This document shows, one piece after another, positions 19,200 to 38,767 of a DNA stretch of 64,000 nucleotides. The position numbers were made by a program, and so were the translations under genes. How positions within the stretch are numbered: position 1 is the first letter of the stretch; every line of letters begins with the position of its first letter. Source of the DNA: Terrimicrobiaceae bacterium (lineage in GTDB: Bacteria; Verrucomicrobiota; Verrucomicrobiia; Chthoniobacterales; JAATET01); NCBI GenBank assembly GCA_028713285.1, contig JAQTOP010000008.1, positions 1,572 through 65,571 on the forward strand, written 5' to 3'. Under the pieces are notes generated by a model, which made no database searches, had not been told where the DNA came from, and saw only the letters and a list, made by a program, of their open reading frames with translations.

Positions 19200-19224
19200 A
19201 AGATCGTCTGGGAATGCAAGGCTG

Positions 19225-19518
19225 TTACGAATCGCGGGATTCCTCCGCGCGTTTGCCGGCTTCCAGCGCGGAAAGCCTGAGGTCGAGGCGGAGACCGACC
19301 GCAGCAACTCCGTCCACCATCGCCGCGAGATTGCGCACCTCGTCGGCGTTCGCTTTGCCGGCAAGGGACGGCTCGATTTGCTGAAGCTTCCCGCTCCACA
19401 TCTTCTCGAGTTCCCGAAGCGAACGCTCGGTGCTCCTGCGCAGCTTCGCGAGCCTGACCGCCAGCGCAATCGTCGCGGCGCTCGAGACGAGTGCGATCAA
19501 TGAGAGCGCGTAAATCAT
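19225..19518 (-). CDS. Small bitopic membrane protein with a coiled-coil tail
   Basis: MIYALSLIALVSSAATIALAVRLAKLRRSTERSLRELEKMWSGKLQQ.... Start chosen at ATG 19518, downstream of the upstream stop at 19541. The N-terminal architecture parallels the next gene. Confidence 0.4.
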   Translation of the reverse strand: MIYALSLIALVSSAATIALAVRLAKLRRSTERSLRELEKMWSGKLQQIEPSLAGKANADEVRNLAAMVDGVAAVGLRLDLRLSALEAGKRAEESRDS

Positions 19519-22500: not shown

Positions 22501-22720
22501 GATCCATCAGCTCCGGCACGCTCCACTCGACATCGGCGAGCGACGCATCAGAAATAAAAACAACGCATTCGCGGAACGAGGCGGTTCCGATGGCCCAGGC
22601 CATGCGGGCGAGCAGGTCGAGCAGCTCGCTCCCGCTGCGGATGAGCGGCAGCACCGTGAGGCGCGATGCGATCACGAGAAGGACAACGCCCTTTCCGGCG
22701 CGGGTGCGGACTTCAGCCAC
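19541..22720 (-). CDS. Giant multidomain transferase: N-terminal domain, DUF115/MptE-like module, GT4-like GT-B domain, and about 270 aa of unknown C-terminus
   Basis: ATGPSL, IICNS, YAAEFRRKL, NILTYLMLPLASTFARRICLLGCDGR and HPGFFAIDYNDYY are paralogous to 10897..12894. They are followed by VITHIMDDWPERL...ISDAMSAAYRERYG...MANKLPECLASGAPLIV (GT-B like). The start is uncertain: ATG 22720 overlaps the upstream gene by 49 nt. Confidence 0.7.
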   Translation of the reverse strand: MAEVRTRAGKGVVLLVIASRLTVLPLIRSGSELLDLLARMAWAIGTASFRECVVFISDASLADVEWSVPELMDPAIAGNFPALRPRVRFVAAPSAEAVIEHLAGSDFVVLAEDPPQWDLLSEGEWIEALNRKKILRCDPIRSRQEFGNWVELNFQLRADRYAEIEQCRSRFARLVEECGGAGTACCLATGPSLAAFKETNFDGAISIICNSAILDEELMAWVRPRLLVFADPIFHFGPSKYAAEFRRKLRDSCARHDYTIIVPMRYYGLLTDAMPELRGRTIGIPSDKPNGFNLDLSNEFRVFTTANILTYLMLPLASTFARRICLLGCDGRPLDEDGYFWRHNQRTQINDQMENIRRVHPGFFAIDYNDYYLDHCRQLEELIGEGEKMGREYGTVTPSHIPALQSRPANLPRMLVIDFTEIGARNATGQLKSALFRNWPAESILQVRPLSTRDGSFFRLHSPAEHPAFKEAKLTREDVLRECGDFDPQVIYFRPTESPPEFVELGWELVQRLGVPVITHIMDDWPERLRLENPALHARVDPTLRELLRRSDARLSISDAMSAAYRERYGFDFTPVANGIDPADWPPVDRYRERGEPLVIRYCGGLTEDMSLAAVEMLARAVGELGAELPIRFEIYALPAALKIAQARFREFRGVEVLPSVEQADYPGLLSSAGAVLIAYNFDDRTRAYTQFSMANKLPECLASGAPLIVIGPDTIATVRRARELGAAVVVAQPDPDALDDALRRLAQEPAIFRERALAARKRALAELDVEGSRRIFQDSVFRLDRVRRDKSEGRTLLGPYTRLHRRRIDDCDVAARFFRDAASATVAVAVGDVARRRLDRFLSREWNVISCPAPAAAQRNVSTLAQRFGKNAVAVVLCNAADLCRVDPLPHPIRTAATLVFCEGDGDGSAALAGCMKIDPGIRAVWSERYAPLGSSPLPDYRLLREIADPAAIPRGRPGTLLLLDPSVIKVPRGAGDAVVHLRKAYVAALNVHPAEVANVGAGQGGVANRIQQWLRAWGTALMRLNVRHQVSGFFRDRVAEFREIFSPSRRGRLIVWK

Positions 22721-23586
22721 TTCGCGGCGAAGCGCGCCAGCTCGTCGTCGGAATAGAAATGGCGCGCCGTTCGCGAAGCGTATTCGGACTCCAGCAAATT
22801 GGCGTCGAGCGTGAGCAAGTTGAGAAATTCTTCGTAGAGCATTGCGTAGGGCTTGTTATCCGAGTCGTTCGCGCGCCGGAGTTCGAGTTCCGCGGAGGGC
22901 GCGAATGCCGCCGCCCAGGGCGAGCCCGCCAGCCATTCACGCACTCCCGGAGCGAAGGCGGCGGCCAAATCTTCAAGGCGGAGCAGCAGGAGATGGACGC
23001 TTCCGTTTCGATGGATCTCGTATCCCCGCTCTCTCGCGAACGGACGGGCGAACACATCGATGCCGAATACCTGCTTCATTTCCTCATCGAACCATCCGTC
23101 GATAAACTCCCGCGGGTAGGTCCGTTGGAAGAGCGCCACGAGCTCGCGAGCCACGCGATGGATCCCATCCGGCGTCGCGCGCACGGGTCTCCTGCGCAGG
23201 AGTTCGAGGCACAGGTCGCGCGAATCCTGCGGAAGATGATGCACCCAGCCCCGGCGGAGGTTGTCGAAGAACGCCGAGACGTTGCGCCCGACGGGCTCGC
23301 GGACCAGCGAGAGAAGATACCAATCGGCCGCCGCGATGCCCTTTGCCAGACGTCCGCTCAGCTCGATGCTCGCAAGGAGATTCCATTGCGGCTGGAATCC
23401 GGGCCTGGCCTGCGAGCGGCCAATCCATTCGCGAATCGACGCCAGCACGGCCCGCTCGCTGAGCACGTGCGTCTGGAAAATCCTCTCCCGTGGCAAATGG
23501 CGCCGCAGGGTCTCGAGGACGCTGGTCGAGCCGACCTTGCCCACCTGGTGCACGCAGAGGATTGCGGGCTTCATCGCGGCGCTCAT
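22672..23586 (-). CDS. Putative PAPS-dependent sulfotransferase (divergent)
   Basis: LCVHQVGKVGSTSVLETL matches the hhhHxPKxGxTSh 5-prime-PSB pattern with P replaced by G. LVREPVGRNVSAFF matches the RxPxxRxxS 3-prime-PB pattern. ATGA overlap at 23583-23586. Confidence 0.65.
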   Translation of the reverse strand: MSAAMKPAILCVHQVGKVGSTSVLETLRRHLPRERIFQTHVLSERAVLASIREWIGRSQARPGFQPQWNLLASIELSGRLAKGIAAADWYLLSLVREPVGRNVSAFFDNLRRGWVHHLPQDSRDLCLELLRRRPVRATPDGIHRVARELVALFQRTYPREFIDGWFDEEMKQVFGIDVFARPFARERGYEIHRNGSVHLLLLRLEDLAAAFAPGVREWLAGSPWAAAFAPSAELELRRANDSDNKPYAMLYEEFLNLLTLDANLLESEYASRTARHFYSDDELARFAAKWLKSAPAPERALSFS

Positions 23587-26500
23587 TCGGCGCGGGGAAC
23601 CAATGCCATCCCGAACAGGCGAAACGCCGCGCGCTCAGGGGCGGCGGCCTGATGGTGGGCTCGCTGCCGGGGATAGAGCGTGATGCGCTGCGTGCCGACC
23701 GAGCCGAAGATGGGAATCTCCACGGTGCGGAGGTCGTTCGGGGAAAAGTTCAGCTCGAACTCGCCCAGAAAACGGGCGCCATTGCGAACGGACAAGGCCT
23801 GCTGCTTGAGCGGGCAGGTGTAGAGTATCAACAAATGGTAACGGCCGCCGCGTTCGACGGTGAGATCGAATTCCGCTTTCGGGCCGTAAACCCAGGAGCA
23901 CTTCATCGCCCTGCCGCGGCGGGTGGCGGGCTCGAACCGGTCGAAGCCGGATCCCCAGCGCACGAAACCCTGATGGACGCGCGCAACGGCCGGCTCGGCG
24001 GGCTTCGCGACCGGCAGCACGATCTTGCGTCCGAGCCTGCGGCCACGCCCGGCGAGGGCGTCGCCAAGTAGGCGGTGCAATTGGTTGAGCGTTTTCTCCG
24101 GAGCGAAGCGGTTCCTTGCGATCACCGGCGCGAGGCCGGAGAAGGAAGCCGCCGTCGCGGCATTGGACCAGATCTCCAGGATCGCTCCGGCGAGGCGTTG
24201 CGCGGAAATTTCATCCGCCACGATGCCGGTCCACCCATCGAGGACGGCTTCGGAAACTCCGCCGGTGCGAAAGCCGATCGATGGCGTGCCGCAGGCCGCG
24301 GCCTCGGTGAAGACCTGGCCAAACGTCTCGTCGCGACTCGGCCCGACATACACGTCGGAGGCGGAGTAGATGCGCGCGAGCGATTCCGGGTCGTTCACGT
24401 AGCCGAAGCAACGCAGATTCTCGCGCGGGAATTGCGCCGCACTCTCCTCGCGACCGAGGCAGCCGAGCAGCAGATTCGGGATGCCCGCGAGCTCGATGGC
24501 CTCGAGCAGCAAGTCCACGCCCTTGCGCGGATCGTCGAGGCGGCCGGCGGAGAACAGCACGAGGAACGCGTCTCCCGGGATGCCAAGCATTCGGCGGCAG
24601 GTGAGGCGATCCAATGGCTGGAGCGAACCGAGCGGCAGCGGGAGATTCACCACGGCGGCGCGCTGAGCGGCGCCCTGCCGGGCGAGATACGCATCCGCGA
24701 CATCCGCGACCGCGCGGCTGTTCGTGGCGATGCGCACCGGGGTCCCGCCGAAATGAAGCAGCCTCTTCGCCGCCCAGGCGGCGTGAATTTTCTCCGGGGC
24801 GAGCGCCGGGTATTCCGTGGGCGTTGGGCAGGCCGCGTCGCAGCCGGCCAGAAACTTTTCGCAGCCCTGCATGTAGGCGCACCGGCCCGTGATGAGCCAG
24901 TAGTCGTGCATGAAGAAAATCGCGGGACATCGCTCGGAAACGAGCGACACGACTTCCTCGCCGAGGTTCGCTCCGTGGAGATTGCCGAAGAACACCACGT
25001 CGGGGTCGCCCGCCAGGAGAACGTCCGCAAGCTGGATGGGCGACAACGGATCGGCCGGACGCAGGACGTCCTTCGCGCAGAGACAGGTAACGACATGCCC
25101 GCCGAGTTGCAGTGCTTCGACCAGTCGGCGGTGGCCGATTCCCGCGCCGAAGCGAAAGCCGTTGTCGTTGAAAAAAACGATCTTCAGCCGCCTCGTCTCC
25201 TCGACGGGCGATGGCTGCGGCACTGCCAGGCCATTCCCGGAGGCGAAGGCATCGCGCAGCCCGCGCAGCTCCGGCTCGTAGTTCTGCGTGAGGAAGGTTT
25301 TTTGCTCATCGTGCTTCCGGAAGAGCGCGATGGGCGCGCCGATCACCACAAGACGCGCTCCGGCCAATGCCATGCGCAGCCACAGCTCGTAATCCATGCT
25401 GAAGTGCAAATCCTCCCGCACGCGGCTGCCCGCGCGCTCCCAAATCCCGCGGGTGAAGAGCACCTCGGGCTGATAGAAAAACTGCCCGCGCAGCCAGCAA
25501 TCATCGAGGTTGAGCAAATCCTCCAGGGGCAGTAGGCCATCGCGGCAGCTCGTGAGATGCCGGCTTTCGACGCGGCCGTCCTGCCGGACCTCCGCGACGC
25601 CCGCGACCATGTCCGCGCCGCTGGTGACCAGGGCAACGACCGCGGCGGCGAGCGCGCCGGGAGCAAGCATGTCGTCGCTGTTCAACCAGGTGACGATCTC
25701 GCCGGTGGCCTGGCGGAATCCCTTGTTCAACGCGTCGCTCTGCCCCTTGTCCGGCTCGCTCACCCACGAGGCGAGATGCGCATCGTAGCGCTTCAGAATC
25801 GCAACGGTTCCGTCGGAACTTCCACCGTCGCAAATGATGTGCTCGATGTCCGGATAGTTCTGACGCAGGACGGAGAGGATATTCTCCTCGATGTAACGCC
25901 CCTGCTGAAAGGACGCGGTGATGACGGACACGCGCGGCCAGGGCTGGCCATCGGGCATCGCGGAAGGCAGGCAATCTGAAACGGGCGCACGGGGCCATGC
26001 CCGCAAATCCCCCTGCCCTCGAACGGCCTCGCGACGCGTTTCGCCCAGGATTTCCTCCACAGCGCGCCGCAATCCATCGTCTGTCCCGTCACCCGCGAAA
26101 GCTGCTGCCAGCAGCGATGCCGTTCGCGCAAAGGGTTCCGCCCCGAGTCCGGCGGGCCGCCGGCCATTCACCCGCGTGAGCTCGATCTCACCGCCATCCG
26201 ATCCGCGGAAATCCGTCGCGTCGGGCATCGCGGAGCCGTCCAGCCCGGCGATCCGCGTGCCGATAGCGCCATACTCCGCCGCCGCGCGCAGCGCCTTCTC
26301 CAGTCGATCACCGCGCGGCCTTTCCGCGAACCAGATCCAGGACGGACAAATCGGGACTTCGCGCAAGAAATCCTCAAGGGAAAGCGGCGCGACGACCGGC
26401 CGATTTTCGGCCTCGCCGACCTCCGCCAGCGCGGCGCGCGCCGCCGGAACGGAACCGGTCAGCACGTAAACCTCGCGCACACCCGCGGAGGCCAGCTCCC

Positions 26501-26600
26501 GCCAGACCGGCGAGATCGAGCCGGCGCCGGCCACAACGAGAATGGGACCGGACGATTCGCGCACGGAATGTGGCAGCCTTTCCAGATCGAGCGAAGTCAC
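23583..26600 (-). CDS. Giant multidomain glycosyltransferase: unknown N-terminal domain, GT2, GT1, and an unknown beta-rich C-terminal domain
   Basis: GT2: VSVITASFQQGRYIEENILSVLRQNYPDIEHIICDGGSSDGT...DKGQSDALNKG...WLNSDD. GT1: PSRDETFGQVFTEAAACGTPSIGFRTGGVSEAVLDGWTGI. I recognise no signature in the first ~230 aa or the last ~150 aa. Confidence 0.8.
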   Translation of the reverse strand: MTSLDLERLPHSVRESSGPILVVAGAGSISPVWRELASAGVREVYVLTGSVPAARAALAEVGEAENRPVVAPLSLEDFLREVPICPSWIWFAERPRGDRLEKALRAAAEYGAIGTRIAGLDGSAMPDATDFRGSDGGEIELTRVNGRRPAGLGAEPFARTASLLAAAFAGDGTDDGLRRAVEEILGETRREAVRGQGDLRAWPRAPVSDCLPSAMPDGQPWPRVSVITASFQQGRYIEENILSVLRQNYPDIEHIICDGGSSDGTVAILKRYDAHLASWVSEPDKGQSDALNKGFRQATGEIVTWLNSDDMLAPGALAAAVVALVTSGADMVAGVAEVRQDGRVESRHLTSCRDGLLPLEDLLNLDDCWLRGQFFYQPEVLFTRGIWERAGSRVREDLHFSMDYELWLRMALAGARLVVIGAPIALFRKHDEQKTFLTQNYEPELRGLRDAFASGNGLAVPQPSPVEETRRLKIVFFNDNGFRFGAGIGHRRLVEALQLGGHVVTCLCAKDVLRPADPLSPIQLADVLLAGDPDVVFFGNLHGANLGEEVVSLVSERCPAIFFMHDYWLITGRCAYMQGCEKFLAGCDAACPTPTEYPALAPEKIHAAWAAKRLLHFGGTPVRIATNSRAVADVADAYLARQGAAQRAAVVNLPLPLGSLQPLDRLTCRRMLGIPGDAFLVLFSAGRLDDPRKGVDLLLEAIELAGIPNLLLGCLGREESAAQFPRENLRCFGYVNDPESLARIYSASDVYVGPSRDETFGQVFTEAAACGTPSIGFRTGGVSEAVLDGWTGIVADEISAQRLAGAILEIWSNAATAASFSGLAPVIARNRFAPEKTLNQLHRLLGDALAGRGRRLGRKIVLPVAKPAEPAVARVHQGFVRWGSGFDRFEPATRRGRAMKCSWVYGPKAEFDLTVERGGRYHLLILYTCPLKQQALSVRNGARFLGEFELNFSPNDLRTVEIPIFGSVGTQRITLYPRQRAHHQAAAPERAAFRLFGMALVPRAE

Positions 26601-26632: not shown

Positions 26633-26968
26633 TCACTTGCCGCGGAAGAGCAGGCGGCGAGCCTGCCAGAGCACCAGCCGCAGCGTGCCGGAGGCGGATT
26701 TATAATCGTTTACAAGCGCCTGCAACCTCCCGAGCCGCTCGGTCATTTTCGCCCGCTCCTCCTTCGCCGCAGCGTGCGCAGCCTCCACTTTGCGCAGCCG
26801 CGCCAGATCGTCGGCCTGCGTGCCGCAAATGGATTCGAGTTCGTGATACTGCCGCTCGAGCATCTCGACGCGAATCCGGCCGTCCTGCGCCTCCGCGCGA
26901 GCGTGGTTCAGCTCCGAAATCAGATCGGCAATCGCCGCGGGCGGCGCAGGTTGCTCCGGACTCGCCAT
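26633..26968 (-). CDS. Small coiled-coil protein
   Basis: The 111-aa sequence MASPEQPAPPAAIADLISELNHARAEAQDGRIRVEMLERQYHELESICGTQADDLARLRKVEAAHAAAKEERAKMTERLGRLQALVNDY has heptad-like charged/hydrophobic periodicity. It starts 2 nt after the upstream stop. Confidence 0.45.
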   Translation of the reverse strand: MASPEQPAPPAAIADLISELNHARAEAQDGRIRVEMLERQYHELESICGTQADDLARLRKVEAAHAAAKEERAKMTERLGRLQALVNDYKSASGTLRLVLWQARRLLFRGK

Positions 26969-26970
26969 CG

Positions 26971-28662
26971 TCAGGCTTCCGCTCCCCGCGGCGAGGTTTT
27001 GACGAACAATCCGCTGCAGCCGGATGCGCCGATGAATCGGGCATGACCGGACTCCGCCCATTCGAGCGCGGCCTGTCTTACGCCGTAGCTGCCGTCGTCG
27101 TTTTCGGGATTCAAAAAATCGTGGAAGAGCACCGGCACCCCGGCGTCGAGCATGCGGGTGAGCATTTCGCAATCGGCCTTCACACCCTCGTAACGATGAT
27201 CGCCATCGACAAAGACCATCGTTGGCGAAATCGGATACGCGGCAAAAAACTCCTCGAGATTGCCCTGGAAGAGACGCGCATACGGCGTGAGTTTCCATGC
27301 GGCAAGCGTGTCGAACGTGCGCCGGATGGACTCGCTGCTGATATCCACGCCGTAGAAAAAAGTGCGGCCCTCGCGGGCGGGATTCGCCAGGGCGCCGAGG
27401 ATTTCGCAAACCGCCGAGCGGCCGCCGTAGGTGCCGATCTCGAGAACCAAGTCGCCGGAGTGATACGCGAGTTCGTATTGCTTGAACGAATCGCCGTCCA
27501 TCGCCCAGCCGGGCACGTCCTTCGTGCGGTCGAAAATCCCTTCATGCCCGGCGTCGATGAATGTCTGCTCGCGGCGATAGGAAGGGCGGAAAATGGCGCC
27601 GCCGCTCCTGCATTCATCCGGGTATTCGATCTCCGGGGCGGCGATTTTTCCGCCGGAAGCGCGGCCGCCATTCTTGCGAAAGAAGCAGCACGCCGTGACC
27701 TGCGGCCAGCTTCCGCCGGCGGAGGCTTCGGTGACGTAATCAAAATATGGCCTGGCGAACTGGTCGAGCTTCTCGATCAACGCCATCGGATACGACATGC
27801 AATATTGCAGATAGCTGCGGAAGAATTCGTAGAAATCGTATTTGCCGATGTGCCTGCCGGAATCCATCGACGCCTCCTGGAAGCTCTGGTTGACATAGAA
27901 CCGGCTGCTCATCCCCAGATCGGCGGCGACATTTGCAAGCTCCGCCAGATCGAAAAGGTGCTTGTCCTCCCACGTGGATTTGTCGAGGTCGCGCCGGTGA
28001 TAGCGCCCCATCGTTCTGGCGAATGCTTTCAACAGCCTGGCCTCCTCCGGCTCGAGCGATACTTTGGCGACCTTCGCAAGGCCGGGCAGCGTGTCGGCGA
28101 GCGCGCCCATGAGCAGATAGCCCTGGGCGCACGGTTCCTGCACGGCGAGGACTCCTCCCGGCAACAGGACGCGCGCGCATTCGCGCAGGAAGGCGGGAAC
28201 GTCGAGAATGTGATGCAGAGTCGAGCGCAGGGCGATCAGCGAGAAGGTATCCGCGGGCAATCGATCCAGCTCGTCGCCCAGCAAAACCCCGTAGCGAACC
28301 GGCGTCTTTGCATCCGCGCCGAGCGCCTCGATTTTTGACCGGGTAATCGCGAGGAATGCGGGCGACGGATCCGTGAGCAGAATCGCGGGATACCGGCTGG
28401 TTGCCGCAAGCCCCACGGACGCAAGGCCGGTTCCGCATCCGATCTCCAGAGCCGGGCCGGTATCCACGCCGCCGCATTCGATCGCCGCGGCAACGAGGCC
28501 GAAACCTGTCTCCAGGTCCCGCGGATTCACGCAATATTGCGTGTCGTATGCGCCCTCCTCGTGCGCGTAGGCGCGCGGCGACGAAATTGCCGCAAACCCG
28601 TCCGTCTGGGGCGTGGCATCCAGCCAGGCGCTGTAGGAATTCATTGTGTCACTCATCAGCAT
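26971..28662 (-). CDS. Dual-domain SAM-dependent methyltransferase (class I MTase plus Methyltransf_24/CmcI-like)
   Basis: N-terminal domain: ALEIGCGTGLASVGLAA ... LLPGGVLAVQEP. C-terminal domain: VLEIGTYGGRSAVCEILGAL ... VFVDGDHRYEGVKADCEML...VLFHDF. Confidence 0.75.
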   Translation of the reverse strand: MLMSDTMNSYSAWLDATPQTDGFAAISSPRAYAHEEGAYDTQYCVNPRDLETGFGLVAAAIECGGVDTGPALEIGCGTGLASVGLAATSRYPAILLTDPSPAFLAITRSKIEALGADAKTPVRYGVLLGDELDRLPADTFSLIALRSTLHHILDVPAFLRECARVLLPGGVLAVQEPCAQGYLLMGALADTLPGLAKVAKVSLEPEEARLLKAFARTMGRYHRRDLDKSTWEDKHLFDLAELANVAADLGMSSRFYVNQSFQEASMDSGRHIGKYDFYEFFRSYLQYCMSYPMALIEKLDQFARPYFDYVTEASAGGSWPQVTACCFFRKNGGRASGGKIAAPEIEYPDECRSGGAIFRPSYRREQTFIDAGHEGIFDRTKDVPGWAMDGDSFKQYELAYHSGDLVLEIGTYGGRSAVCEILGALANPAREGRTFFYGVDISSESIRRTFDTLAAWKLTPYARLFQGNLEEFFAAYPISPTMVFVDGDHRYEGVKADCEMLTRMLDAGVPVLFHDFLNPENDDGSYGVRQAALEWAESGHARFIGASGCSGLFVKTSPRGAEA

Positions 28663-29375
28663 AAAATCTCGTCGAGGATGAGATAAATTCCCTCCTCCGC
28701 TTCAATCCGGTCGATCCAGGCGCCCTGCTCGGGGCTGAGATGGCGCTGCCAGTCTCCCATCACGCCCTTTCGAAAAAAGCGCTTCTCCTCCGGCACGGCG
28801 GGACCGCTGAGCTTCGAAAACTGCGTGTTGCTGCGGGCGGTCTGAATGTCGCGCACCGTCAATTCTCTCCCGAGAAACCGTCCGAGCCGCAGCACCTCGT
28901 CTTCAAAACAGGTGTGCAGCTTTTGATAGGTCGTGAAAAAAATTGCATCCTCGACGCCCCGATTGTCCCAATACAAATGGTAGCGCGTCAACTGGCGGAC
29001 GAGGCTCTCGCCGCGCCGCTCGAAAAACTCCTCGATCGTGCCGTCGAACTGCCCAAGTCGCCGAAAATGGAAGTAAGCCGACACCACGACATCCTTCGGG
29101 TCGCGATAGACGTTGAGAACCTTCACCCCCGGCGTCGCCAGGAGCAGCGGGCGCACTTCGTCCTCGGGCTTGTAGTGCGACTTGATGAGGTAGTCGTTCG
29201 TCGCGATGCCGGCCGTGCGCAGGAAGTCACCCATCCGGGACGGCTCGATCGTATTGTTCTTCCATGCCTCGTTCTTGAACTCCGCCGGCACCTCGATGAA
29301 CGTCCCAATCTGCCGCACCACCAGGGTAAGCCAGGTCGAACCGCTTTTGAACGCTCCGTTGCTTACGATCAGCAT
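28656..29375 (-). CDS. PAPS-dependent sulfotransferase
   Basis: MLIVSNGAFKSGSTWL (5-prime-PSB) and VLNVYRDPKDVVVSAYFH (3-prime-PB). Confidence 0.85.
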   Translation of the reverse strand: MLIVSNGAFKSGSTWLTLVVRQIGTFIEVPAEFKNEAWKNNTIEPSRMGDFLRTAGIATNDYLIKSHYKPEDEVRPLLLATPGVKVLNVYRDPKDVVVSAYFHFRRLGQFDGTIEEFFERRGESLVRQLTRYHLYWDNRGVEDAIFFTTYQKLHTCFEDEVLRLGRFLGRELTVRDIQTARSNTQFSKLSGPAVPEEKRFFRKGVMGDWQRHLSPEQGAWIDRIEAEEGIYLILDEILC

Positions 29376-29394
29376 GAAAAAACGGAAAGTCGCG

Positions 29395-30267
29395 TCAGGC
29401 GCTCCAGCGTTCGATGACCAGCGGCATTGCGGCCCGAACCAGAACCAGACCGATGAGCAGCATCACGAGCATGAGCGCCATCACGCCAAAAAATTGGGGC
29501 AACACCGTCAAGGACTCGCCCGCCACCAATTGCCGGGTCGTCATGACCAGATAGCTCATCGGATTCAGCCGCGCGACCAGTGCGTAAACACCGCCGGGAG
29601 GAAGGTGCTTCGCCGCGAACACGGTCGGCGTCACGACGAGCCACCCCTTCTCGATGATGGGAATGGCGAGCGCGATATCCCGGTAAAGCAGTCCGATGGG
29701 CATGACCAAAAGTCCGACCGCCGTTCCGAATGCCGCCACGCCGATCAGGGCCGGTATCCCCATCAGCGTGGTCGGGGTAAACGGGAGACGAAACCAGAGG
29801 AAGGCGAAGAAGATCAGCACGATCTGCAAGGCCATGGTGATGCCAAGTTTCACCATACTGGAAAGAATGATCGCCTCGGGCGGCACGACCACCTTGGTCA
29901 GCACGCTGCGGTAGCTGCCGACGACCTGGAGCGGCCCGCTGACCGCCGTGGCGAAAACCTGCCAGATGGACACCCCGATCAGGATGTAGGCGCCGTTGGG
30001 AATCTTCGCCGTGCCGAAATTGACGAGGTCATTTTGTTGCGCGACCGTGAGGCCGACGGCGATCACGATCGGCGGCGCCAGAATCCAGAACAGCCCGAGC
30101 AGCGACTGCCGATACTGCGAACGCAAATCGCGGACCGCGAGAATGATCGCGAGCTGGCGGCTGCCGACAATGTCGCGCCACATCATTCGCAGCAGCTTCG
30201 ACGGGCGCAGCAGCGTGCTCTCCGCGCCGTATTCGTGGGTCTGCAGATGTCCGCTTTCCAGGCTCAT
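29395..30267 (-). CDS. wzm: ABC-2 type polysaccharide export permease (Wzm/TagG/KpsM class)
   Basis: ILAVRDLRSQYRQSLLGLFWILAPPI is the hallmark N-terminal ABC-2 motif. About 6 TM helices, 290 aa. Confidence 0.85.
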   Translation of the reverse strand: MSLESGHLQTHEYGAESTLLRPSKLLRMMWRDIVGSRQLAIILAVRDLRSQYRQSLLGLFWILAPPIVIAVGLTVAQQNDLVNFGTAKIPNGAYILIGVSIWQVFATAVSGPLQVVGSYRSVLTKVVVPPEAIILSSMVKLGITMALQIVLIFFAFLWFRLPFTPTTLMGIPALIGVAAFGTAVGLLVMPIGLLYRDIALAIPIIEKGWLVVTPTVFAAKHLPPGGVYALVARLNPMSYLVMTTRQLVAGESLTVLPQFFGVMALMLVMLLIGLVLVRAAMPLVIERWSA

Positions 30268-30321
30268 GATTCGATAGTGACGGAATGAAATGTGTTGTCC
30301 AACGCTGCGTAAACCCGCGCT

Positions 30322-31782
30322 TCAATGCGACCTCGCGCGGCCGCCCCTTCCGAGCCGCCGAAGCATTTCGTCGCGCAATCTGACCCGCATGGGCGTGGAT
30401 TTTTCCCGCCAAAGCTCCTCGGCAAGCGACTCGGCGCGGTGCGTCGCCTCCGCGACCTTTTCCTTGAGCCGCAGCCGATCCTCGCCGGCCTTCTCACGCG
30501 CCAGCCGCGCGCGCTCGGTCCATTGCTCCCTCAGTGCGTCCAGTCGCCGCCGCAGATATTCGTTCTGCGTCTGCAGGTGATCCAGGTGCAGGAGCGGGTG
30601 CTTCCTGATCTCGTCTTCGGGATCATAACCCGACCAGCCTGCGCGGACGCCTGCGGAGCGACGGCGACATTCGATCGCTTCGCGACAGATCTCGATCAGG
30701 CTGTAGGCCCAGCGCTTCCCCCGTTCCCGCTCGAGCTGGAGACTGGCCCGTTCGGCCTCCACGCCCGACCAGCCACCGCACGACCAGTCAATCTCCTGCA
30801 GGTGCCCTGCCAGGGGACCGGCGTCGTAGCATGGGAAGAAAAACGCTCCCGGCGCCTGCTCGCGATTGGACTCTATATCCGAACAAGCCACGCGCTTGCC
30901 GAGGGCGAGGGAATCCTCGATCGTCGTGTTCCATCCCTCGAATCGCGAGGGTTGCACGACCTCGATCGCGCAGCGCATCAGCGCGATGAGGTCCGGCAGC
31001 GGCACCTCGCCCAGCACGCTGATATTCTGAAAGAGCTTTTCCACCGAAAGCCTTCCGAACAATTCCGAGATGTGGGAATTACGCGGATCGCGCGTGTCGT
31101 TCGGGACTCCGACCATCACGACATGCACATCGGGTCGCAACCGCCGGGCGAGTGCGACCGCCTCGACAACCAGCCGATGGTTCTTGTGCTTCCAGAACTG
31201 ATTCGCAACGAGGACAAACGCCCGCGGCAAACCGTATTTGCCGGAGACGAACCGCGGATCGCCTTCCGTCATGCCGCGGGCGTAGGCGAAACTCGACGGA
31301 AAATGCGCGCAGCCGCTCGCCCCTGCATATGATGGATACAATGCCCGGAAATCGGCGAGTACGGCTTCGCTCGAAAACATCATCGCGTCGCAGTTGTCCA
31401 CCAGATATCCGAAGTAGCGGTCGCGCTGCGAGAGTTCCTCGTCGCTGAAATACTCCGGCAGGTGGCGATGCTGGAAATCCGGTATCCAGCCGACCAGCGC
31501 GCAGGCCGTCTGCGGAAGCAGCGCCTCGGTGACCGGGAGCAGCACGTCGAGCCCATGCGCCTCCACCGCCTCCTGGATGTGCGTCAGCGAAACGACATCG
31601 GCGTCGAAGCGAATCGCCTTCGCTCCCGCCGGCAATTCCGCAAGCGAACTTGTGCGTCCGCCAAGGACATGCACCTCGCAATCCGCAATCGACGCGTTCG
31701 CGAGCGCATGGACCATGCTGCGCGTGTAGCTCGCGCCCGCAGTCCAGTTCGCCTGCGTCCGGTCGAGGAAACCGATCTTCAT
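30322..31782 (-). CDS. Glycosyltransferase family 1 with a C-terminal coiled-coil extension of about 90 aa
   Basis: GT1 core: VVQPSRFEGWNTTIEDSLALGKRVACSDI. Tail (nt 30322-30600): HLDHLQTQNEYLRRRLDALREQWTERARLAREKAGEDRLRLKEKVAEATHRAESLAEELWRE. ATGA overlap at 31779-31782. Confidence 0.75.
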   Translation of the reverse strand: MKIGFLDRTQANWTAGASYTRSMVHALANASIADCEVHVLGGRTSSLAELPAGAKAIRFDADVVSLTHIQEAVEAHGLDVLLPVTEALLPQTACALVGWIPDFQHRHLPEYFSDEELSQRDRYFGYLVDNCDAMMFSSEAVLADFRALYPSYAGASGCAHFPSSFAYARGMTEGDPRFVSGKYGLPRAFVLVANQFWKHKNHRLVVEAVALARRLRPDVHVVMVGVPNDTRDPRNSHISELFGRLSVEKLFQNISVLGEVPLPDLIALMRCAIEVVQPSRFEGWNTTIEDSLALGKRVACSDIESNREQAPGAFFFPCYDAGPLAGHLQEIDWSCGGWSGVEAERASLQLERERGKRWAYSLIEICREAIECRRRSAGVRAGWSGYDPEDEIRKHPLLHLDHLQTQNEYLRRRLDALREQWTERARLAREKAGEDRLRLKEKVAEATHRAESLAEELWREKSTPMRVRLRDEMLRRLGRGGRARSH

Positions 31783-32663
31783 CCCACGCGAATGCCGAAT
31801 GCCACGCCGTAGCCCAGGCTGGCATACTCGTGGGTGCGAATCGGGAACGGGGCCTCGGAGATCGCCTGCCGCCAGATCGCCCGCAGGTTCGGATGCTGCG
31901 GATGGCTGATGTCGTCGAAGATGACCACGCCGCCCACATCGAGTCGCGGCAGCACGTCGCGCAAATCCTGCAACGCGCCTTCGTCGCTGTGGTCACCATC
32001 CACCGTCACCATCGAAAGCTTCCGCTCCGGCTGTCCGGCGAAGAACTTCGGCAGCGTCACATGGCTGTCGCCATCGACAAATTCCGCCGTTCCCGAGTGG
32101 CCGATCCTGCGCAACTCGGAGCGGACAAAATCCGGTCCCGGGTTTTCCATTCCGGCGTAATCCGCCATCCACATGTCGAAACCGAACAGCGCGCATTTTC
32201 GCGCGGCGGCCGCAGCCGTGGCCATGCTGCGGCCCCGGCGCACGCCGATCTCCAGATAGCTCACGGGCTGCAAAAGCAAGGCTGCCGCCGCAACGACATC
32301 GACGATGTCCAGGTAGTGCCAGCATTCGCCGAATTTGCGCTCTCCCTCCCGGCGGAACTCGGAAATATACCGCGAATAGGCGTCGGGGGTGAGCCGCGCA
32401 AACATCCGCCGCACGAATCGGCGGCATGCGCCCGAGTGGGCAAATGCCACGATGGTTTCCGGATCCACGAGCACCGGATTATACCACCCCCCAAGGGCCT
32501 CATGCCTGGTGAATACCCCGCGATTGGTCGTCATCGAACAGGAGTGGTCGGCCGGAATTCCGGGCCACTGGCAATGCTGGAATTCCGGATTCCCGGACAG
32601 ATCGAATCGCGTCCGCCGCTGACGGACGTGGCGACAGATAAACGGTTGCAAATACCGCCGCAT
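31779..32663 (-). CDS. Class I SAM-dependent methyltransferase (Methyltransf_24-like)
   Basis: YLEIGVRRGRSMATAAAAA ... VTVDGDHSDEGALQDLRDVLPRLDVGGVVIFDDI. The start is uncertain: 32663 or ATG 32534. Confidence 0.65.
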   Translation of the reverse strand: MRRYLQPFICRHVRQRRTRFDLSGNPEFQHCQWPGIPADHSCSMTTNRGVFTRHEALGGWYNPVLVDPETIVAFAHSGACRRFVRRMFARLTPDAYSRYISEFRREGERKFGECWHYLDIVDVVAAAALLLQPVSYLEIGVRRGRSMATAAAAARKCALFGFDMWMADYAGMENPGPDFVRSELRRIGHSGTAEFVDGDSHVTLPKFFAGQPERKLSMVTVDGDHSDEGALQDLRDVLPRLDVGGVVIFDDISHPQHPNLRAIWRQAISEAPFPIRTHEYASLGYGVAFGIRVG

Positions 32664-32695
32664 GTCCGCTGGAATGAAGTCACCATCGATTCCGA

Positions 32696-32929
32696 TTATC
32701 CGGCCGTCGTCTTGCTTCCGATCACATCGATAAACTGCCGGAGACTTAGAGTTTCCAGCGTCTCCTCATCGCTAAATCTGATCCCAAACTCCTCCTCCAG
32801 GGCCAGGATCAGATTCATTTGCCTCAGGGAATCCCACTCTTCAATCGTTTCCGAGCTTGAGTCGTCTCCAATTTGCGATTCCTCGATTCCGAAGACCGAG
32901 GCCATCACCCGCTTAATTCTGGTTTCCAT
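32696..32929 (-). CDS. Acyl carrier protein
   Basis: 77 aa with IEEWDSLRQMNLILALEEEFGI. The DSL serine is in the usual helix-2 context of phosphopantetheine attachment. Confidence 0.8.
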   Translation of the reverse strand: METRIKRVMASVFGIEESQIGDDSSSETIEEWDSLRQMNLILALEEEFGIRFSDEETLETLSLRQFIDVIGSKTTAG

Positions 32930-34667
32930 ATCGAATGCTTATGTAATGTAAATTCCTGGGTTGATAGACGTCCAATTCCAACCGGTAATTCCTGACTGTC
33001 TGCGTGGATTCCATGGTCTGAAATCCGACCCTCTCATAAAAATCGATCACCTGGTTGTTTTTTTGCGTCTGAATGTAGGTTGCCTCGACGGCTTCGATTC
33101 CCGCGTCTTTCATAAAGGGAATCAGAAAATCGAAGAAGGCCAATTCGATATTACGTCCAATCGTCCGGCAACTCATCAACAGCGTATCGATCGTTGCACT
33201 CCCTGCATCCACCCCGCGACAAACGATGCACAATCCCACCAGTCCATATCCGCCAAACTTATCAGCCACGGAAAAGGAGACTACTGAGTCGGACCGGCTG
33301 TCGATGAAGTTCCGAATGTCCGCTTCGGTGTATCGTTTGGTCGTGAGATTGAATTGGTTTGTCTTCTGCGTCAGTTGGGCAAGGCGCGGCGCGTCCCTGA
33401 TCTCGTCAATGGCAATTGAAACACCCAACTGCAGCGAGGCGAGATATTCCTCGACGTTTTGAAACGCCGAAATTCCCGCCTTGCGTTCGATTTCGCGCTG
33501 ATACATCGCCCCTCGTTCGGCATCCTCCTTCGAGAGGACACCGGAATAAAAGAGCCGCGAAGTCTTCCTCAGCAGTTCAGGATAATCATGCAGACTTTCA
33601 GGAACCCGGACGGCCAGCACCTCCGGCATACCGCTCCGGACCCGCTCAATCTCAAAATCCGAATCATCAATAAACACCAGGCTGTTCAGTCCGATATTCA
33701 AGTCCCGGGCGATCGCCGCAAGATTGGATGCTTTGTCTTCCCAATTGATCCTTTTAATTGCAATCGAGGCATCGCGCAGGCAGGCATCGGGGTGATTCTC
33801 GATGACATGATTCACATCATCGAGGTTATTCTTGCTGCACAACCCGATCAAAACTCCCTTCCGGCTCAACTCGACCGCGATTTGCTGGATTTCTTCGAAT
33901 ATCGCGCCGGCTTTTGACCTCGCGGACATTTCGATGCCGTCAAACCCGTCTTCTCCGAGCACCCCCTTCCAGAGTGTATTATCGCAGTCGAAGATAAGCG
34001 CCTTCCTGGCTTTCCCCGCCACCGATTGGATGATCGCGCCGCAATAGTCCGCATAAGCTCTAAAGAATTCAATCGAGTACAGGGATTTCGAAGAATAAAA
34101 AAATCTGAAATCCACCGCTTTCGATACGGACATCGACGCAAGGATCTTTTCGACATCGACGAGGAAAAGATTGCTGCATGCGTCTTCCTTCGCCGTCAGG
34201 TGGGCATTGAGCTCTTCGCAAATTCGATCGAAGTTATTCCTTCCAATGACATGGTGATTGAATGCCATGCTCGAGAATTGATTGAAGAAAACAAGCGACG
34301 TCCTTGAGAGATTGTTAAGAACAAAGTCAATTTCCGCTTTAACCGCGGAGACCAGGTCCTGAATCTCGACAGCCTCCATTACATTTGCCCTCGCTTGCAG
34401 CAAAGGTCTAATGTTGCAAGCCTCCCAAAATACGATGACCAAATCCGCTTCTCGAAACTTTAGAGAATCCTGCGGGATGTTGTCGTAGTCACCCGAAGAA
34501 ACTCTGGCGTGGATTCCCGCCCGTCGAAGCGGATGCTCGAAAATAGCGTTCAGCTGAGCAACAACGATATTTGACAACACGGCAATTGTGTACGCCGGCG
34601 TGCCTTCCATGCTCTTCCCAAGCAGGGCATTCTCACGCAGAATTTCGCTATAACTCAATCCAGCCAT
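32913..34667 (-). CDS. FkbH-like HAD-IIIC phosphatase/transferase with a C-terminal GNAT-like domain
   Basis: KALIFDCDNTLWKGVLGEDG (HAD motif I, typical of FkbH), LVFIDDSDFE, and a C-terminal FGGYGLVGLCIV...RTIGRNIELAFFDFL...FYERVGFQ. Confidence 0.85.
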   Translation of the reverse strand: MAGLSYSEILRENALLGKSMEGTPAYTIAVLSNIVVAQLNAIFEHPLRRAGIHARVSSGDYDNIPQDSLKFREADLVIVFWEACNIRPLLQARANVMEAVEIQDLVSAVKAEIDFVLNNLSRTSLVFFNQFSSMAFNHHVIGRNNFDRICEELNAHLTAKEDACSNLFLVDVEKILASMSVSKAVDFRFFYSSKSLYSIEFFRAYADYCGAIIQSVAGKARKALIFDCDNTLWKGVLGEDGFDGIEMSARSKAGAIFEEIQQIAVELSRKGVLIGLCSKNNLDDVNHVIENHPDACLRDASIAIKRINWEDKASNLAAIARDLNIGLNSLVFIDDSDFEIERVRSGMPEVLAVRVPESLHDYPELLRKTSRLFYSGVLSKEDAERGAMYQREIERKAGISAFQNVEEYLASLQLGVSIAIDEIRDAPRLAQLTQKTNQFNLTTKRYTEADIRNFIDSRSDSVVSFSVADKFGGYGLVGLCIVCRGVDAGSATIDTLLMSCRTIGRNIELAFFDFLIPFMKDAGIEAVEATYIQTQKNNQVIDFYERVGFQTMESTQTVRNYRLELDVYQPRNLHYISIRYGNQN

Positions 34668-34694
34668 TTATCAATTGCACCCAACAATTCGGGG

Positions 34695-35612: not shown

Positions 35613-35695
35613 GACTCTTCGTTGGTATTAATGACTGTTTGCCAATCCTTGGGTGGAAAATACCGATGCCCGCAATAGTCGGCAGGCCGACCGGT

Positions 35696-36364: not shown

Positions 36365-36430
36365 AGTATCGTTAACTTGCAGGCAGCCTTTTCCGCCTTG
36401 CTTTGGAAGGCCCGGTCTCGCGGTCTGTGT

Positions 36431-37324: not shown

Positions 37325-37369
37325 CGTCCGGGCACGATGCTGCGGCAGGCTTGCTTCGCGGGCATCATG

Positions 37370-38767
37370 CTAATCGGTCTCCATGAGGTCGTCGGCGGCT
37401 TCGACGGTGTTCAGGATTTTTTCGGTATGCAGCCGGGCGCCATCATGCGCAACAACGCTCCACGTCCTGCGCTGATAATACTCGCCGGCATTCCATGGAT
37501 CGTCGCACGAGACGAGGAACTGTGCGCTTCGGCGCGCCGCGATGGTGACGCGGATGGGGCGGGAGAATTTGAGGTGGACCTGATAGACACCCTCCCGCAA
37601 ACCGACGCATGCGAGGTCGATGCGCACTTCGTATTCTCCGGGCTGGACCCTGGACAGGCTTCCGCCATCCCGGCGGGAAAGCATCTTCAGCACCTGTCTT
37701 GGTTTCTCATCCAGCTTCATCGCCTCGAGGGAGGGATGGCGATACACAATCGCTGTAAAGTTTAGCTGCTCGATGGGCTGCTTCACCTGGAACCGCGCGA
37801 CGATCACCGCATCCTCACCCGGCTTCACCGGCCCGCCGGTCGCGGACTGCATGTCCACTCCAAGAATTTCCGCCTCATCGGAGGCTTGCTGATCGCCGTC
37901 CTCCGTCTGGTTGACCATCGCCGCCCGATCGCCCTTTTGATCCTCGATCAGGTGACGTTCGTATTGCTGAATCACCGATCCAATGGGCCCGAAGTCCACG
38001 ACTTCTCCGCGGCGCAAATACAACGCGGTTTCCGCAATCGAGAGCAGGATGCTCGGGGAGTGATGCACCATGACGAGGGACATGCCGCTGGAGCGCATTT
38101 CGAAGAGCCGCTCGAGGCACTTCCTGCGAAAATTCATGTCGCCGACGGCCAGCACCTCGTCGAGCAGAAGGATGTCGGGCTGGGTGCTGATGGCGCAGGC
38201 AAAACCCAGCCGCGCCACCATCCCCGAGCTGTAGGTTTGCACCGGCGCATCGATCGCGTAGCCGATCTCCGAGAATGCCACCACGTCGTCGAAGCGGTCC
38301 TTGATCTCCTGGTAGGTCAGCCCGAGGACCGACATGTTCGCGAAGACGTTCTCGCGGCCGGTCAGCACGGGATTGAACCCAGCGCCCAGCGCGAGCAACG
38401 GCGCCAGGCGGCCCCGCACGGTCACCCGCCCGGTGGTGGGCTTGATGAGCCCCGCGACGATGCGCATGAGCGTCGTCTTTCCGCAGCCGTTGATCCCGAC
38501 GATGCCCACCGCGTCACCCGAGCGCAGTTCGAAGTTCACATCCTGCACCGCCCAGAATTCATTTTTGCGCAGGACACCGGCGCGTTGCGAGAGTCCGACG
38601 ACTTCGCGCCCGATGTCCTGGACGCCGTAGAAAAGCGATCGCTTCAAGTCGCGGCAAAAGCGCTTCGAGACATTCTCGAGCGCCAGCACGACGTGCTTCC
38701 CGGAATTGCCATCGGCAGGCGCCGCAGTTTCGGAGGCCGCAGGGTTGATCAGTTCAGATACGTTCAT
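37370..38767 (-). CDS. wzt: Polysaccharide ABC exporter ATP-binding protein with a C-terminal extension of about 200 aa (Wzt-type)
   Basis: Walker A GINGCGKTTL, signature YSSGMVARLGFA, Walker B LLLDEVLAVGD. About 200 aa of beta-rich sequence follow the NBD (ILGVDMQSATGGPVKPGEDAVIVARFQVKQ...YEVRIDLACVGLREGVYQVHLKF). Confidence 0.9.
   Translation of the reverse strand: MNVSELINPAASETAAPADGNSGKHVVLALENVSKRFCRDLKRSLFYGVQDIGREVVGLSQRAGVLRKNEFWAVQDVNFELRSGDAVGIVGINGCGKTTLMRIVAGLIKPTTGRVTVRGRLAPLLALGAGFNPVLTGRENVFANMSVLGLTYQEIKDRFDDVVAFSEIGYAIDAPVQTYSSGMVARLGFACAISTQPDILLLDEVLAVGDMNFRRKCLERLFEMRSSGMSLVMVHHSPSILLSIAETALYLRRGEVVDFGPIGSVIQQYERHLIEDQKGDRAAMVNQTEDGDQQASDEAEILGVDMQSATGGPVKPGEDAVIVARFQVKQPIEQLNFTAIVYRHPSLEAMKLDEKPRQVLKMLSRRDGGSLSRVQPGEYEVRIDLACVGLREGVYQVHLKFSRPIRVTIAARRSAQFLVSCDDPWNAGEYYQRRTWSVVAHDGARLHTEKILNTVEAADDLMETD

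Follow-up and report, generated by a model that had tools for sequence, protein, structure and literature searches.

Surface glycans made by the ABC-transporter strategy are characterized by two hallmarks, a coiled-coil terminator and a Wzt CBM (PMC11127046, PMC11231755). The coiled-coil terminator acts as a ruler in the systems tested for this, E. coli O9 (= Klebsiella O3) and Klebsiella O12, and in all studied ABC-transporter glycan systems with length control, ruler and terminating enzyme form one fused protein (PMC11231755). The stalk of WbdD measures ~20 nm (PMC5082667).

Here, we analyzed a stretch of 64,000 nucleotides (the window) from a MAG of Terrimicrobiaceae (Verrucomicrobiota), an uncultured soil bacterium. 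A sequence-only reading of this DNA had proposed that one ruler is distributed over a glycosyltransferase with a coiled-coil tail (GT4cc), a free-standing coiled-coil protein of 111 aa (CC111) and a dual methyltransferase. Our comparison with related loci leads us, tentatively, to a different arrangement, namely two separate stalk units, one of which is split into separate polypeptides.

The transporter genes and the surrounding cluster

The genes belong to a surface-glycan cluster of the ABC-transporter-dependent type, which encodes both Wzm and Wzt. The five genes from GT4cc to CC111 lie on the minus strand, with the sulfotransferase gene and wzm between GT4cc and the dual methyltransferase, as had been read from the sequence. 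The features discussed below are as follows.

22672..23586, minus strand: NKWYS-family protein (Pfam PF10364, E 4e-19, and synteny)
23583..26600, minus strand: GT2-GT4 two-module glycosyltransferase, 1005 aa, polymerase-like (Pfam and PDB sequence matches)
26633..26968, minus strand: CC111, free-standing helical (coiled-coil-type) protein, 111 aa (ORF and translation)
26636..26686, minus strand: C-terminal segment of CC111, residues 95-111, TLRLVLWQARRLLFRGK, hydrophobic and basic
26971..28662, minus strand: dual methyltransferase, 563 aa (Pfam Methyltransf_11/12/25, then Methyltransf_24)
28656..29375, minus strand: Sulfotransfer_1 sulfotransferase, 239 aa (Pfam, E 8e-26)
29395..30267, minus strand: Wzm, ABC-transporter permease (NCBIfam galactan_ABC_perm, E 4e-13, below cut-off)
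30322..31782, minus strand: GT4cc, 486 aa (Pfam Glycos_transf_1 = CAZy GT4)
30355..30390, minus strand: short basic helix after the GT4cc stalk, residues 465-476 (AF2)
30397..30597, minus strand: GT4cc stalk helix, residues 396-462, 67 residues, ~100 Å if straight (AF2)
31779..32663, minus strand: Methyltransf_24 methyltransferase, 294 aa, directly upstream of GT4cc
37370..38767, minus strand: Wzt, ABC-transporter ATPase, 465 aa (NBD profile and PDB matches)

The Wzm orthologues in related loci match Pfam ABC2_membrane. The NBD of Wzt matches TagH/Wzt models and PDB Wzt/TarH chains (E 1e-49 to 1e-54), and the PDB sequence matches end at the NBD; the sole Pfam match of the C-terminal domain (~190 aa, nt 37370-37960) is Wzt_C, at E 0.0016 and 18.9 bits where the cut-off is 30.4, which leaves its assignment as a CBM below threshold. 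Besides the dual methyltransferase, the cluster encodes other candidate modifying or capping enzymes: three methyltransferases, the Sulfotransfer_1 protein, the NKWYS protein, which we read as sulfotransferase-like, and an acyltransferase.

GT4cc and its C-terminal tail

Among Chthoniobacterales, GT4cc belongs to the core of this type of locus. In L003, L004 and the P0141 locus, none of which has the dual methyltransferase or CC111, the tailed protein adjoins wzm or wzt. In all related loci examined, a methyltransferase gene stands before GT4cc; in the window, the stop of the one and the start of the other overlap by 4 nt.

In the AlphaFold2 (AF2) monomer model of GT4cc (pLDDT 90), a GT-B domain (residues 1-375) is followed by a low-confidence linker, the stalk helix (pLDDT about 86-94) and the short basic helix; the top Foldseek matches are the GT4 enzymes SPS, MshA and BshA. 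The C-terminal helical tail that the sequence-only reading had placed at nt 30322-30600 (residues 394-486) is confirmed by the model, and it is kept in ~25 Chthoniobacterales homologues, the untailed relatives being 380-415 aa long. The stalk is flanked by a conserved N motif, (N/H)P-x-x-Y-x-x-Y-L-E, and, around residues 465-476, by a conserved C motif, E-R/K-x-K/T-P-L/M-R-x-R-x-R-E (alignment consensus 'Er.kPLR.r.rea'). Between these motifs lie 47-67 residues in 21 homologues, changing by steps of 3, 4 or 7.

Quantitative coiled-coil propensity was seen at the level of the families, CC111 (below) included, and was weak in the window's GT4cc tail taken by itself. The profile of the 25 homologues has a period of 3.55-3.65 (z 5.3-9.6), such that the tail family combines a long helix with an apolar period of ~3.5 residues, whereas the window's own tail, which is 43% charged and sparse in hydrophobic residues in its second half, shows weak 3.5-residue periodicity alone (z 0.4). 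In a home-made heptad score, 3/300 shuffles of the GT4cc tail were as high as observed.

CC111, the dual methyltransferase and their accessory block

CC111, a hypothetical protein in the NCBI annotation, is a real gene that is under purifying selection and kept in five loci. That the ORF might not be translated had been named in the sequence-only reading as a possible refutation; the codon-position GC (0.74/0.46/0.79), the dN/dS of ~0.26 against the L001 orthologue, the in-frame indels and the orthologues in L001, L007, L087 and L005/L006 speak for a genuine gene. The AF2 monomer model consists of a single 99-residue helix (residues 11-109, mean pLDDT 85) preceded by ten Pro-rich residues, and the hydrophobic profile of the family has a period of 3.45 (z 6.3-6.4; ≤1/1000 shuffles as high). 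The long proline-free helix and the ~3.5-residue apolar period of a coiled coil are thus both present, as had been supposed, and searches against Pfam and PDB returned sub-threshold matches only, all of them to coiled-coil families.

The C-terminal segment of CC111 carries the invariant motif G-x-x-R-L-x-x-W-Q (invariant columns G94, R97, L98, W101, Q102 and L106) and has a hydrophobic moment of 0.45 compared with 0.08 in a mid-helix control; it is a putative membrane-binding or partner-binding helix. The N motif and WQ are 88 residues apart in three orthologues, and the alignment shows this spacing to be 3 residues smaller in the member of 29% identity; the length of CC111 is thus held while its sequence drifts.

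The dual methyltransferase comprises a class I Methyltransf_11/12/25 domain (residues 70-180) and a Methyltransf_24 domain (407-516) according to Pfam. The heptad score detected no heptad segment and hence no coiled coil of its own, a comparison with PDB retrieved no WbdD chain at E≤0.1, and the Pfam/NCBIfam results included no kinase family. The gene ends 2 nt before CC111 (from its TGA to the CC111 ATG) and in another frame, which agrees with the spacing already noted; separate ORFs are also found in L001 and L087.

CC111 tracks the dual methyltransferase and is genetically locked to it in five loci. A CC gene lies directly 3' of a dual methyltransferase with the MT11-to-MT24 order in the window, L001, L087, L007 and L005/L006, with MT identities of 72%, 75%, 82% and 47%, respectively, for the latter four. 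The CC protein of L005/L006 is 29% identical, and, depending on the locus, the two genes are 2 nt or 29 nt apart or overlap by 1 nt. Since no fused MT-CC or CC-GT protein was found among 1.84 billion representatives, the pairing has no Rosetta-stone support. Dual methyltransferases of the permuted order (MT24-MT11, ~600 aa) lack a CC partner; one of them, in L002, stands beside a GT2-GT4 gene with no CC gene at all. Therefore, the enzyme pair can work without a stalk.

CC111 belongs to an accessory block together with the dual methyltransferase and the 1005-aa GT2-GT4 enzyme, and in loci with full context the order is dual methyltransferase, CC111, GT2-GT4 and NKWYS. In the window and L001, the block lies between the sulfotransferase gene and a p1059 homologue, and L087 has the same start of the block, with GT2-GT4 after the CC gene as in L001. 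In L003, which lacks the block, the sulfotransferase gene adjoins the p1059 homologue, and in L004, which lacks both the block and the sulfotransferase gene, Wzm adjoins it. The GT2-GT4 gene, the third of the block, starts 32 nt past CC111, and its PDB sequence matches are to GT2 at residues 215-344 and to GT4 at 636-855; this enzyme was absent from the sequence-only ruler proposal. In L005, the most distant locus, the first 115 aa encoded by the gene after CC have no similarity to GT2-GT4, so that old age is demonstrated for the MT-CC pair alone and not for the trio. ORFs of 95-125 aa with a TM segment and a coiled coil (TM+CC) occur downstream of NKWYS genes in L001, L003 and L004, and a TM+CC+domain protein is encoded in the window too, at 18414-19199.

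Two proposed stalk units and their counterparts in known systems

The two-unit reading, which we hold as a tentative preference, would assign the helices as follows. The first unit would be GT4cc itself, in which an N-terminal GT4 catalytic domain bears its own ~100 Å C-terminal helix with a conserved, possibly docking, motif at the end; this layout of catalytic head, stalk and membrane- or partner-proximal end is that of known terminators such as WbdD and Klebsiella O4 ORF7. GT4cc would add a terminal sugar, a possible substrate for subsequent methylation by the upstream methyltransferase, whose gene is translationally coupled to that of GT4cc. The second unit would be the accessory block with its dual methyltransferase, CC111 and GT2-GT4, followed by the NKWYS gene. 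We propose that CC111 oligomerizes into a coiled coil of ~12-15 nm, with its hydrophobic-basic C-terminal helix contacting the membrane or the polymerase and its other end holding the soluble dual methyltransferase, such that methyl capping would reach only chains grown to about the length of the stalk. That CC111 is in this sense a molecular ruler with a gene of its own, a free membrane-proximal stalk spacing a dual-methyltransferase terminator from a separate GT2-GT4 polymerase, is the bolder part of this reading, and we regard it as possible but doubtful; the predicted stalks, at ~10-15 nm, are shorter than the ~20 nm of WbdD (PMC5082667).

This shortness, together with the dual methyltransferase homologues that occur elsewhere without a CC partner, would also suit a scaffold, in which the helices di- or trimerize the proteins and tether the soluble dual methyltransferase and GT4 to a membrane complex while enzyme ratios or export set the chain length. 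The small membrane-anchored helical proteins beside modifying enzymes in L001, L003 and L004 and the TM+CC+domain protein of the window suggest a general tethering habit in the lineage. However, a CC111 length within 3 residues at 29% identity and GT4 tails that vary by helix-phase-preserving steps between conserved end motifs are patterns expected of spacers (PMC5082667), and the coiled-coil proteins studied in ABC-dependent systems all carry a terminator and are rulers where tested (PMC11231755); we consider a role in scaffolding or localization alone rather unlikely. The proposal that started from the sequence, a hetero-coiled coil of the GT4 tail and CC111 that forms, with the dual methyltransferase, a single distributed ruler-terminator, draws on the fact that in the window, L001 and L087 a stretch of 5 kb encodes all three and on the comparable helix lengths (67 versus about 80-99 residues). 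The idea of a split ruler is partly supported, in that both helices are conserved, the cluster is of the ABC type and CC111 is locked to the dual methyltransferase, but we found no sign that the GT4 tail shares in it: the tail family is conserved in loci without CC111 and the dual methyltransferase, CC111 follows the dual methyltransferase and not GT4, the two helices share no sequence similarity (E 2.7) and their conserved end motifs differ. A ruler common to both helices is accordingly very improbable.

GT4cc might instead serve as a polymerase subunit or as the glycosyltransferase of an adaptor or primer step, with a tail that is a charged single α-helix or an in-plane amphipathic helix and not a coiled-coil ruler. 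While the other large enzymes change from locus to locus, this glycosyltransferase is conserved, which would suit an adaptor step, and a fusion to a GT2 module, as in polymerases, is seen in its more distant homologues (737-757 aa); the charge and the hydrophobic-poor second half of the window's tail, and a family period that is not 3.5, point the same way. Against this stand the several family members with a clean periodicity of 3.5-3.55 (z up to 5.4), the layout of head, stalk and docking motif as in known terminators (PMC11231755) and the consistently coupled upstream methyltransferase, and we judge the adaptor explanation to be improbable.

If the two-unit reading with a CC111 ruler is true, this would be the first ruler detached from both terminator and polymerase. 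Taken with the TM+CC ORFs that neighbour NKWYS genes in sister loci, it would speak for a modular design in Verrucomicrobia, 'enzyme plus clip-on stalk'. A detached ruler would show the stalk to be an exchangeable part; length control would be easy to probe by swapping or resizing one 111-codon gene with the enzymes untouched, and glycoengineers would gain a simple handle on polymer size. The terminator-ruler paradigm would extend from Proteobacteria to uncultured Verrucomicrobiota, and a conserved tailed GT4 family with naturally varying stalk length is brought to notice.

Among known systems, Klebsiella pneumoniae O4 ORF7, a GT137 terminating Kdo transferase with a C-terminal coiled coil, is the counterpart of GT4cc. 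ORF7 is a CMP-Kdo-dependent terminator, whereas the terminating role of GT4cc is putative, and the fold of GT4cc is a canonical GT-B GT4, not GT137, with no TPR-like bundle. Both proteins nevertheless combine a GT head with a C-terminal helical stalk in a stand-alone polypeptide encoded in a wzm/wzt cluster.

WbdD of E. coli O9a / Klebsiella O3 is a methyltransferase-kinase with a ~200 Å trimeric coiled coil and a C-terminal amphipathic membrane helix that recruits WbdA. The accessory block has a shorter stalk and encodes neither a kinase nor a methyltransferase homologous to WbdD, and its coiled coil and C-terminal helix are not on the catalytic chain; unlike in WbdD, head and stalk are separate proteins, a pairing seen at the level of the genes. 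Taken together, the dual methyltransferase and CC111 nonetheless present the same succession of catalytic head, coiled coil and C-terminal hydrophobic-basic helix, and in both systems the polymerase is a separate two-module glycosyltransferase encoded next door.

Klebsiella pneumoniae O7 ORF6 and O12 WbbB are single chains, in contrast to the three ORFs here, which have separate starts and lie in different frames, 2 nt and 32 nt apart. The block has no kinase domain, its methyltransferases belong to Methyltransf_11/12 and Methyltransf_24 with no detectable similarity to WbdD, its GT modules are GT2 and GT4 and not GT2+GT2 or GT102/GT103, and its stalk is about 80-99 residues long. All of these systems use an ABC-transporter pathway, and the terminator of O7 ORF6 contains a methyltransferase (PMC11231755), like the putative terminator of the block. 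The domain order of ORF6 and WbbB, namely terminator, coiled coil and two GT modules, is collinear with the dual methyltransferase, CC111 and GT2-GT4 genes (PMC11231755), a match that holds purely at the level of gene order and is found in the window, L001 and L087.

Layout of the glycan-assembly cluster

A single glycan-assembly cluster on the minus strand of the window extends from ~38.8 kb to 19.5 kb or beyond, and its upstream boundary is an NAD synthase gene, as is also the case in the related locus L003. The two-domain (dual) methyltransferase, the free-standing 111-aa helical protein CC111 and GT4cc, a GT4 glycosyltransferase with a C-terminal helical stalk, are each 100% identical to a protein from a 66,477-bp Terrimicrobiaceae MAG contig (Verrucomicrobiota, Chthoniobacterales). 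Every coordinate claimed in the sequence-only reading of this region proved correct.

Genes of the cluster, in order from the upstream end
37370-38767, minus strand: Wzt ATPase, 465 aa
36431-37324, minus strand: methyltransferase
35696-36364, minus strand: hexapeptide acyltransferase
34695-35612, minus strand: methyltransferase
32913-34667, minus strand: 584-aa protein with HAD and GNAT matches only, weak
31779-32663, minus strand: Methyltransf_24 methyltransferase
30322-31782, minus strand: GT4cc (GT4 with tail), 486 aa
29395-30267, minus strand: Wzm
28656-29375, minus strand: Sulfotransfer_1 protein
26971-28662, minus strand: dual methyltransferase, 563 aa
26633-26968, minus strand: CC111, 111 aa
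23583-26600, minus strand: GT2-GT4 enzyme, 1005 aa
22672-23586, minus strand: NKWYS protein, read as sulfotransferase-like
19541-22720, minus strand: GT4-containing protein, 1059 aa

Gene-by-gene comparison of the window with related loci revealed a common core of Wzt, a methyltransferase, GT4cc, Wzm, a sulfotransferase, the 1059-aa protein, a 665-aa protein, an NKWYS protein and a GT2 enzyme; the core sulfotransferase is missing from L004. In the window and in locus L001, the sulfotransferase gene is separated from the 1059-aa gene by an extra block consisting of the dual methyltransferase, CC111, GT2-GT4 and NKWYS genes, and the metagenomic locus L087 carries this block as far as its contig reaches. 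We think that the GT2-GT4 gene, which the sequence-only reading left out, is the natural third member of this unit.

Several parts of these proteins returned zero Pfam matches, namely the N and C ends of GT2-GT4 and the unassigned domains of p1059, p665, p787 and p351. In GT2-GT4, these ends are the N-terminal 220 aa (25941-26600, minus strand) and the C-terminal ~150 aa (23583-24050, minus strand), the latter beta-rich in look by eye, and either might serve for docking or as a sugar-binding module. The 1059-aa (19541-22720) and 665-aa (10897-12894) proteins, both on the minus strand and kept as core genes in L001, L003 and L004, share a homologous N-terminal region of ~400 aa, without a Pfam match and with 34-36% identity to each other's orthologues, which may be an undescribed glycan-assembly domain.

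The GC content is 62-67% over most of the window and dips to 52-59% at 32000-38000, a stretch between Wzt and the Methyltransf_24 gene that holds the 584-aa protein, two methyltransferases and the hexapeptide acyltransferase. Since the content of this sub-block is unlike that of L003, L004 and L087, it may have been acquired separately. The window and L003 share 49% identity in the Wzt C-domain, as against 81% in the NBD, and these values do not settle whether the two C-domains read the same cap.

CC111 and its pairing with the dual methyltransferase

The dual methyltransferase (Methyltransf_11/12/25, then Methyltransf_24) ends with TGA at 26973-26971, and, as had been read from the sequence, two bases separate this stop from the ATG of the 111-aa ORF. 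The ORF lies in another frame. This ORF is a real gene: it is annotated by NCBI, and its codon-position GC of 0.74/0.46/0.79 matches the genome pattern. Comparison with the L001 orthologue gave 52% identity, in-frame indels and a dN/dS of ~0.26, a value that is approximate because dS is saturated.

AF2 predicted residues 11-109 as one unbroken helix (mean pLDDT 85). With a home-made score, the heptad signal of the single sequence is modest, the observed value being reached by 6 of 300 shuffles. Averaging the hydrophobic profiles of five orthologues gave a period of 3.45 residues, with z 6.3 for residues 12-93 (reached by 1 of 1000 shuffles) and z 6.4 for residues 12-109 (0 of 1000), and the weak database matches are all to coiled-coil families (e.g. 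ATG16, Sec2p, the Rad50 coiled coil and designed coils). CC111 is a probable canonical coiled coil. The possibility that the helix folds back as a hairpin at the conserved ICGTQ motif was considered and rejected, given that AF2 models an unbroken helix there and the apolar repeat keeps its phase through the motif. In three orthologues, 88 residues separate the N-terminal motif from an invariant W-Q; the alignment puts this spacing at 3 residues fewer in the distant orthologue. CC111 ends in a hydrophobic, basic stretch of 17 residues (TLRLVLWQARRLLFRGK), in which G, R, L, W, Q and L positions are invariant and the hydrophobic moment is 0.45. WbdD, the terminator of the O9a system, has a C-terminal amphipathic helix (PMC11231755), and from this likeness we infer that the C-terminal helix of CC111 may contact the membrane or a partner.

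Four relatives of CC111 were found altogether. A word-index search returned CC111 itself and P0122; HMMER, run exhaustively against 1.84 billion representatives, added the true relatives P0243 and P0246, together with two compositional matches; and a metagenome scan with the dual-methyltransferase alignment gave one useful locus, L087. The metagenome scan with the coiled-coil alignment found nothing, and the scan of genome contigs with the dual methyltransferase yielded single-domain relatives only, with no CC111 homologue in 79 loci. Every relative sits directly downstream of a dual methyltransferase of identical domain order, with a 2-nt gap in L001 (methyltransferase identity 72%) and L087 (75%), a 1-nt overlap in L007 (82%) and a 29-nt gap in L005/L006 (47%; coiled-coil identity 29%). 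This variation argues against a programmed frameshift joining the two genes, an explanation that was rejected, and for translation that is coupled but separate. The first 115 aa of the gene after the distant coiled coil in L005 have no homology to GT2-GT4.

No fused protein joining the methyltransferase to the coiled coil, or the coiled coil to a glycosyltransferase, was found in the HMMER search of the 1.84 billion representatives. Both methyltransferase domains are also fused in the reversed order, Methyltransf_24 first, in other metagenomic proteins, namely P0005-P0015 (~600 aa) and the one at L002 10001-11818, and they are widespread as separate proteins of ~330 aa. That they are fused either way round speaks for joint action of the two domains. 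The reversed dual methyltransferases have no coiled-coil partner, and no hidden coiled coil was found in the 1188-aa GT2-GT4 beside the permuted enzyme of L002.

The GT4cc stalk and other helical elements

In the AF2 model of GT4cc (overall pLDDT 90), a flexible linker joins a GT-B domain (1-375) to a 67-residue helix (396-462), after which comes a short basic helix (465-476). The tail is 43% charged in the window, where its periodicity is weak when taken alone; the family profile has strong periodicity (period 3.55-3.65, z 5.3-9.6), and the tail is a long amphipathic helix, probably a coiled coil. Some 25 homologues, 458-498 aa long and with 45-67% identity, retain it, while remoter relatives are 380-415 aa without a tail or have a GT2 module instead. 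Its start, (N/H)P-x-x-Y-x-x-Y-L-E, and its end, E-R-x-K-P-L-R-x-R-x-R-E, are conserved around a poorly conserved middle. In the 21 homologues among P0124-P0148 in which both motifs were located, the intervening lengths are 47, 50, 53, 54, 57, 61, 64 and 67 residues, differing by steps of 3, 4 or 7; the stalks of P0141 and P0140 are exactly one heptad apart. This natural variation could be set against glycan length.

The tailed GT4 gene adjoins wzm or wzt in L001, L003, L004, L087 and the P0141 locus, where a methyltransferase gene comes before it and usually overlaps it by 4 nt. The sequence-only reading had suggested that one ruler may be distributed over this tail, CC111 and the dual methyltransferase. 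Both helical elements are real; however, L003, L004 and the P0141 locus have the tailed GT4 without the dual methyltransferase or CC111, and the tail and CC111 have no similarity. Judged from these comparisons, the tail is a family trait independent of CC111, and the proposal, which is supported in part, has been re-drawn.

A third helical element, which the sequence-only reading did not list, lies at 18414-19199 (minus strand), within ORF 18414-19469 and just downstream of the 1059-aa gene. From Met91, this ORF encodes an N-terminal TM helix, a heptad-scoring segment (long-ORF residues 99-147) and an unassigned domain of ~170 aa, and the element is 30% identical to a 323-aa protein of the same TM and coiled-coil type in L003. 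Its layout of anchor, stalk and head is inverted relative to WbdD. Furthermore, small ORFs of 95-125 aa, with an N-terminal TM helix and then a charged helical segment, directly follow NKWYS genes at L001 9455-9769, L003 20174-20473 and L004 19556-19933 and 20820-21107, whereas the NKWYS gene of the window has no such neighbour. Modifying enzymes may thus be repeatedly paired with small anchored helices.

Proposed units and known coiled-coil terminators

We propose two units. In one, GT4cc would have a head-stalk-dock design resembling those of WbdD and the terminating glycosyltransferase O4 ORF7, probably adding a terminal sugar that is then modified by the coupled methyltransferase. In the other, terminator, stalk and polymerase would be three separate proteins: we infer that CC111 oligomerises, with its C-terminal helix at the membrane or the polymerase, and holds the dual methyltransferase ~12-15 nm away, such that only chains with that reach would be capped.

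For CC111, it is about equally likely that the role of the helices is confined to tethering and oligomerising enzymes, with no ruler effect, and the other small anchored helical proteins of the lineage hint at tethering only. The two-unit reading is further weakened by the lack of a fused precedent, by the stalkless methyltransferase/GT2-GT4 pair found elsewhere, by the many other candidate capping enzymes, by stalks shorter than that of WbdD (~20 nm; PMC5082667) and by a Wzt C-domain whose match to Wzt_C is below threshold.

In mode of action, the region plausibly resembles the WbdD, WbbB, ORF6 and O4 ORF7 systems. It falls outside the WbdD family: a kinase is absent, the dual methyltransferase contains no WbdD-like sequence, and the architecture is split. 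GT4cc is not a GT137 enzyme, its Foldseek matches being ordinary GT4 enzymes. The first three genes of the extra block follow the order of domains in Klebsiella O7 ORF6, with methyltransferase, coiled coil and two GT modules in turn (PMC11231755), and Klebsiella O12 WbbB has the same order but with a glycosyltransferase terminator (PMC11231755). WbbB and ORF6 are single chains, unlike the system in the window; if our reading is true, a ruler encoded by a separate gene would vary the known coiled-coil terminator design in a new way.
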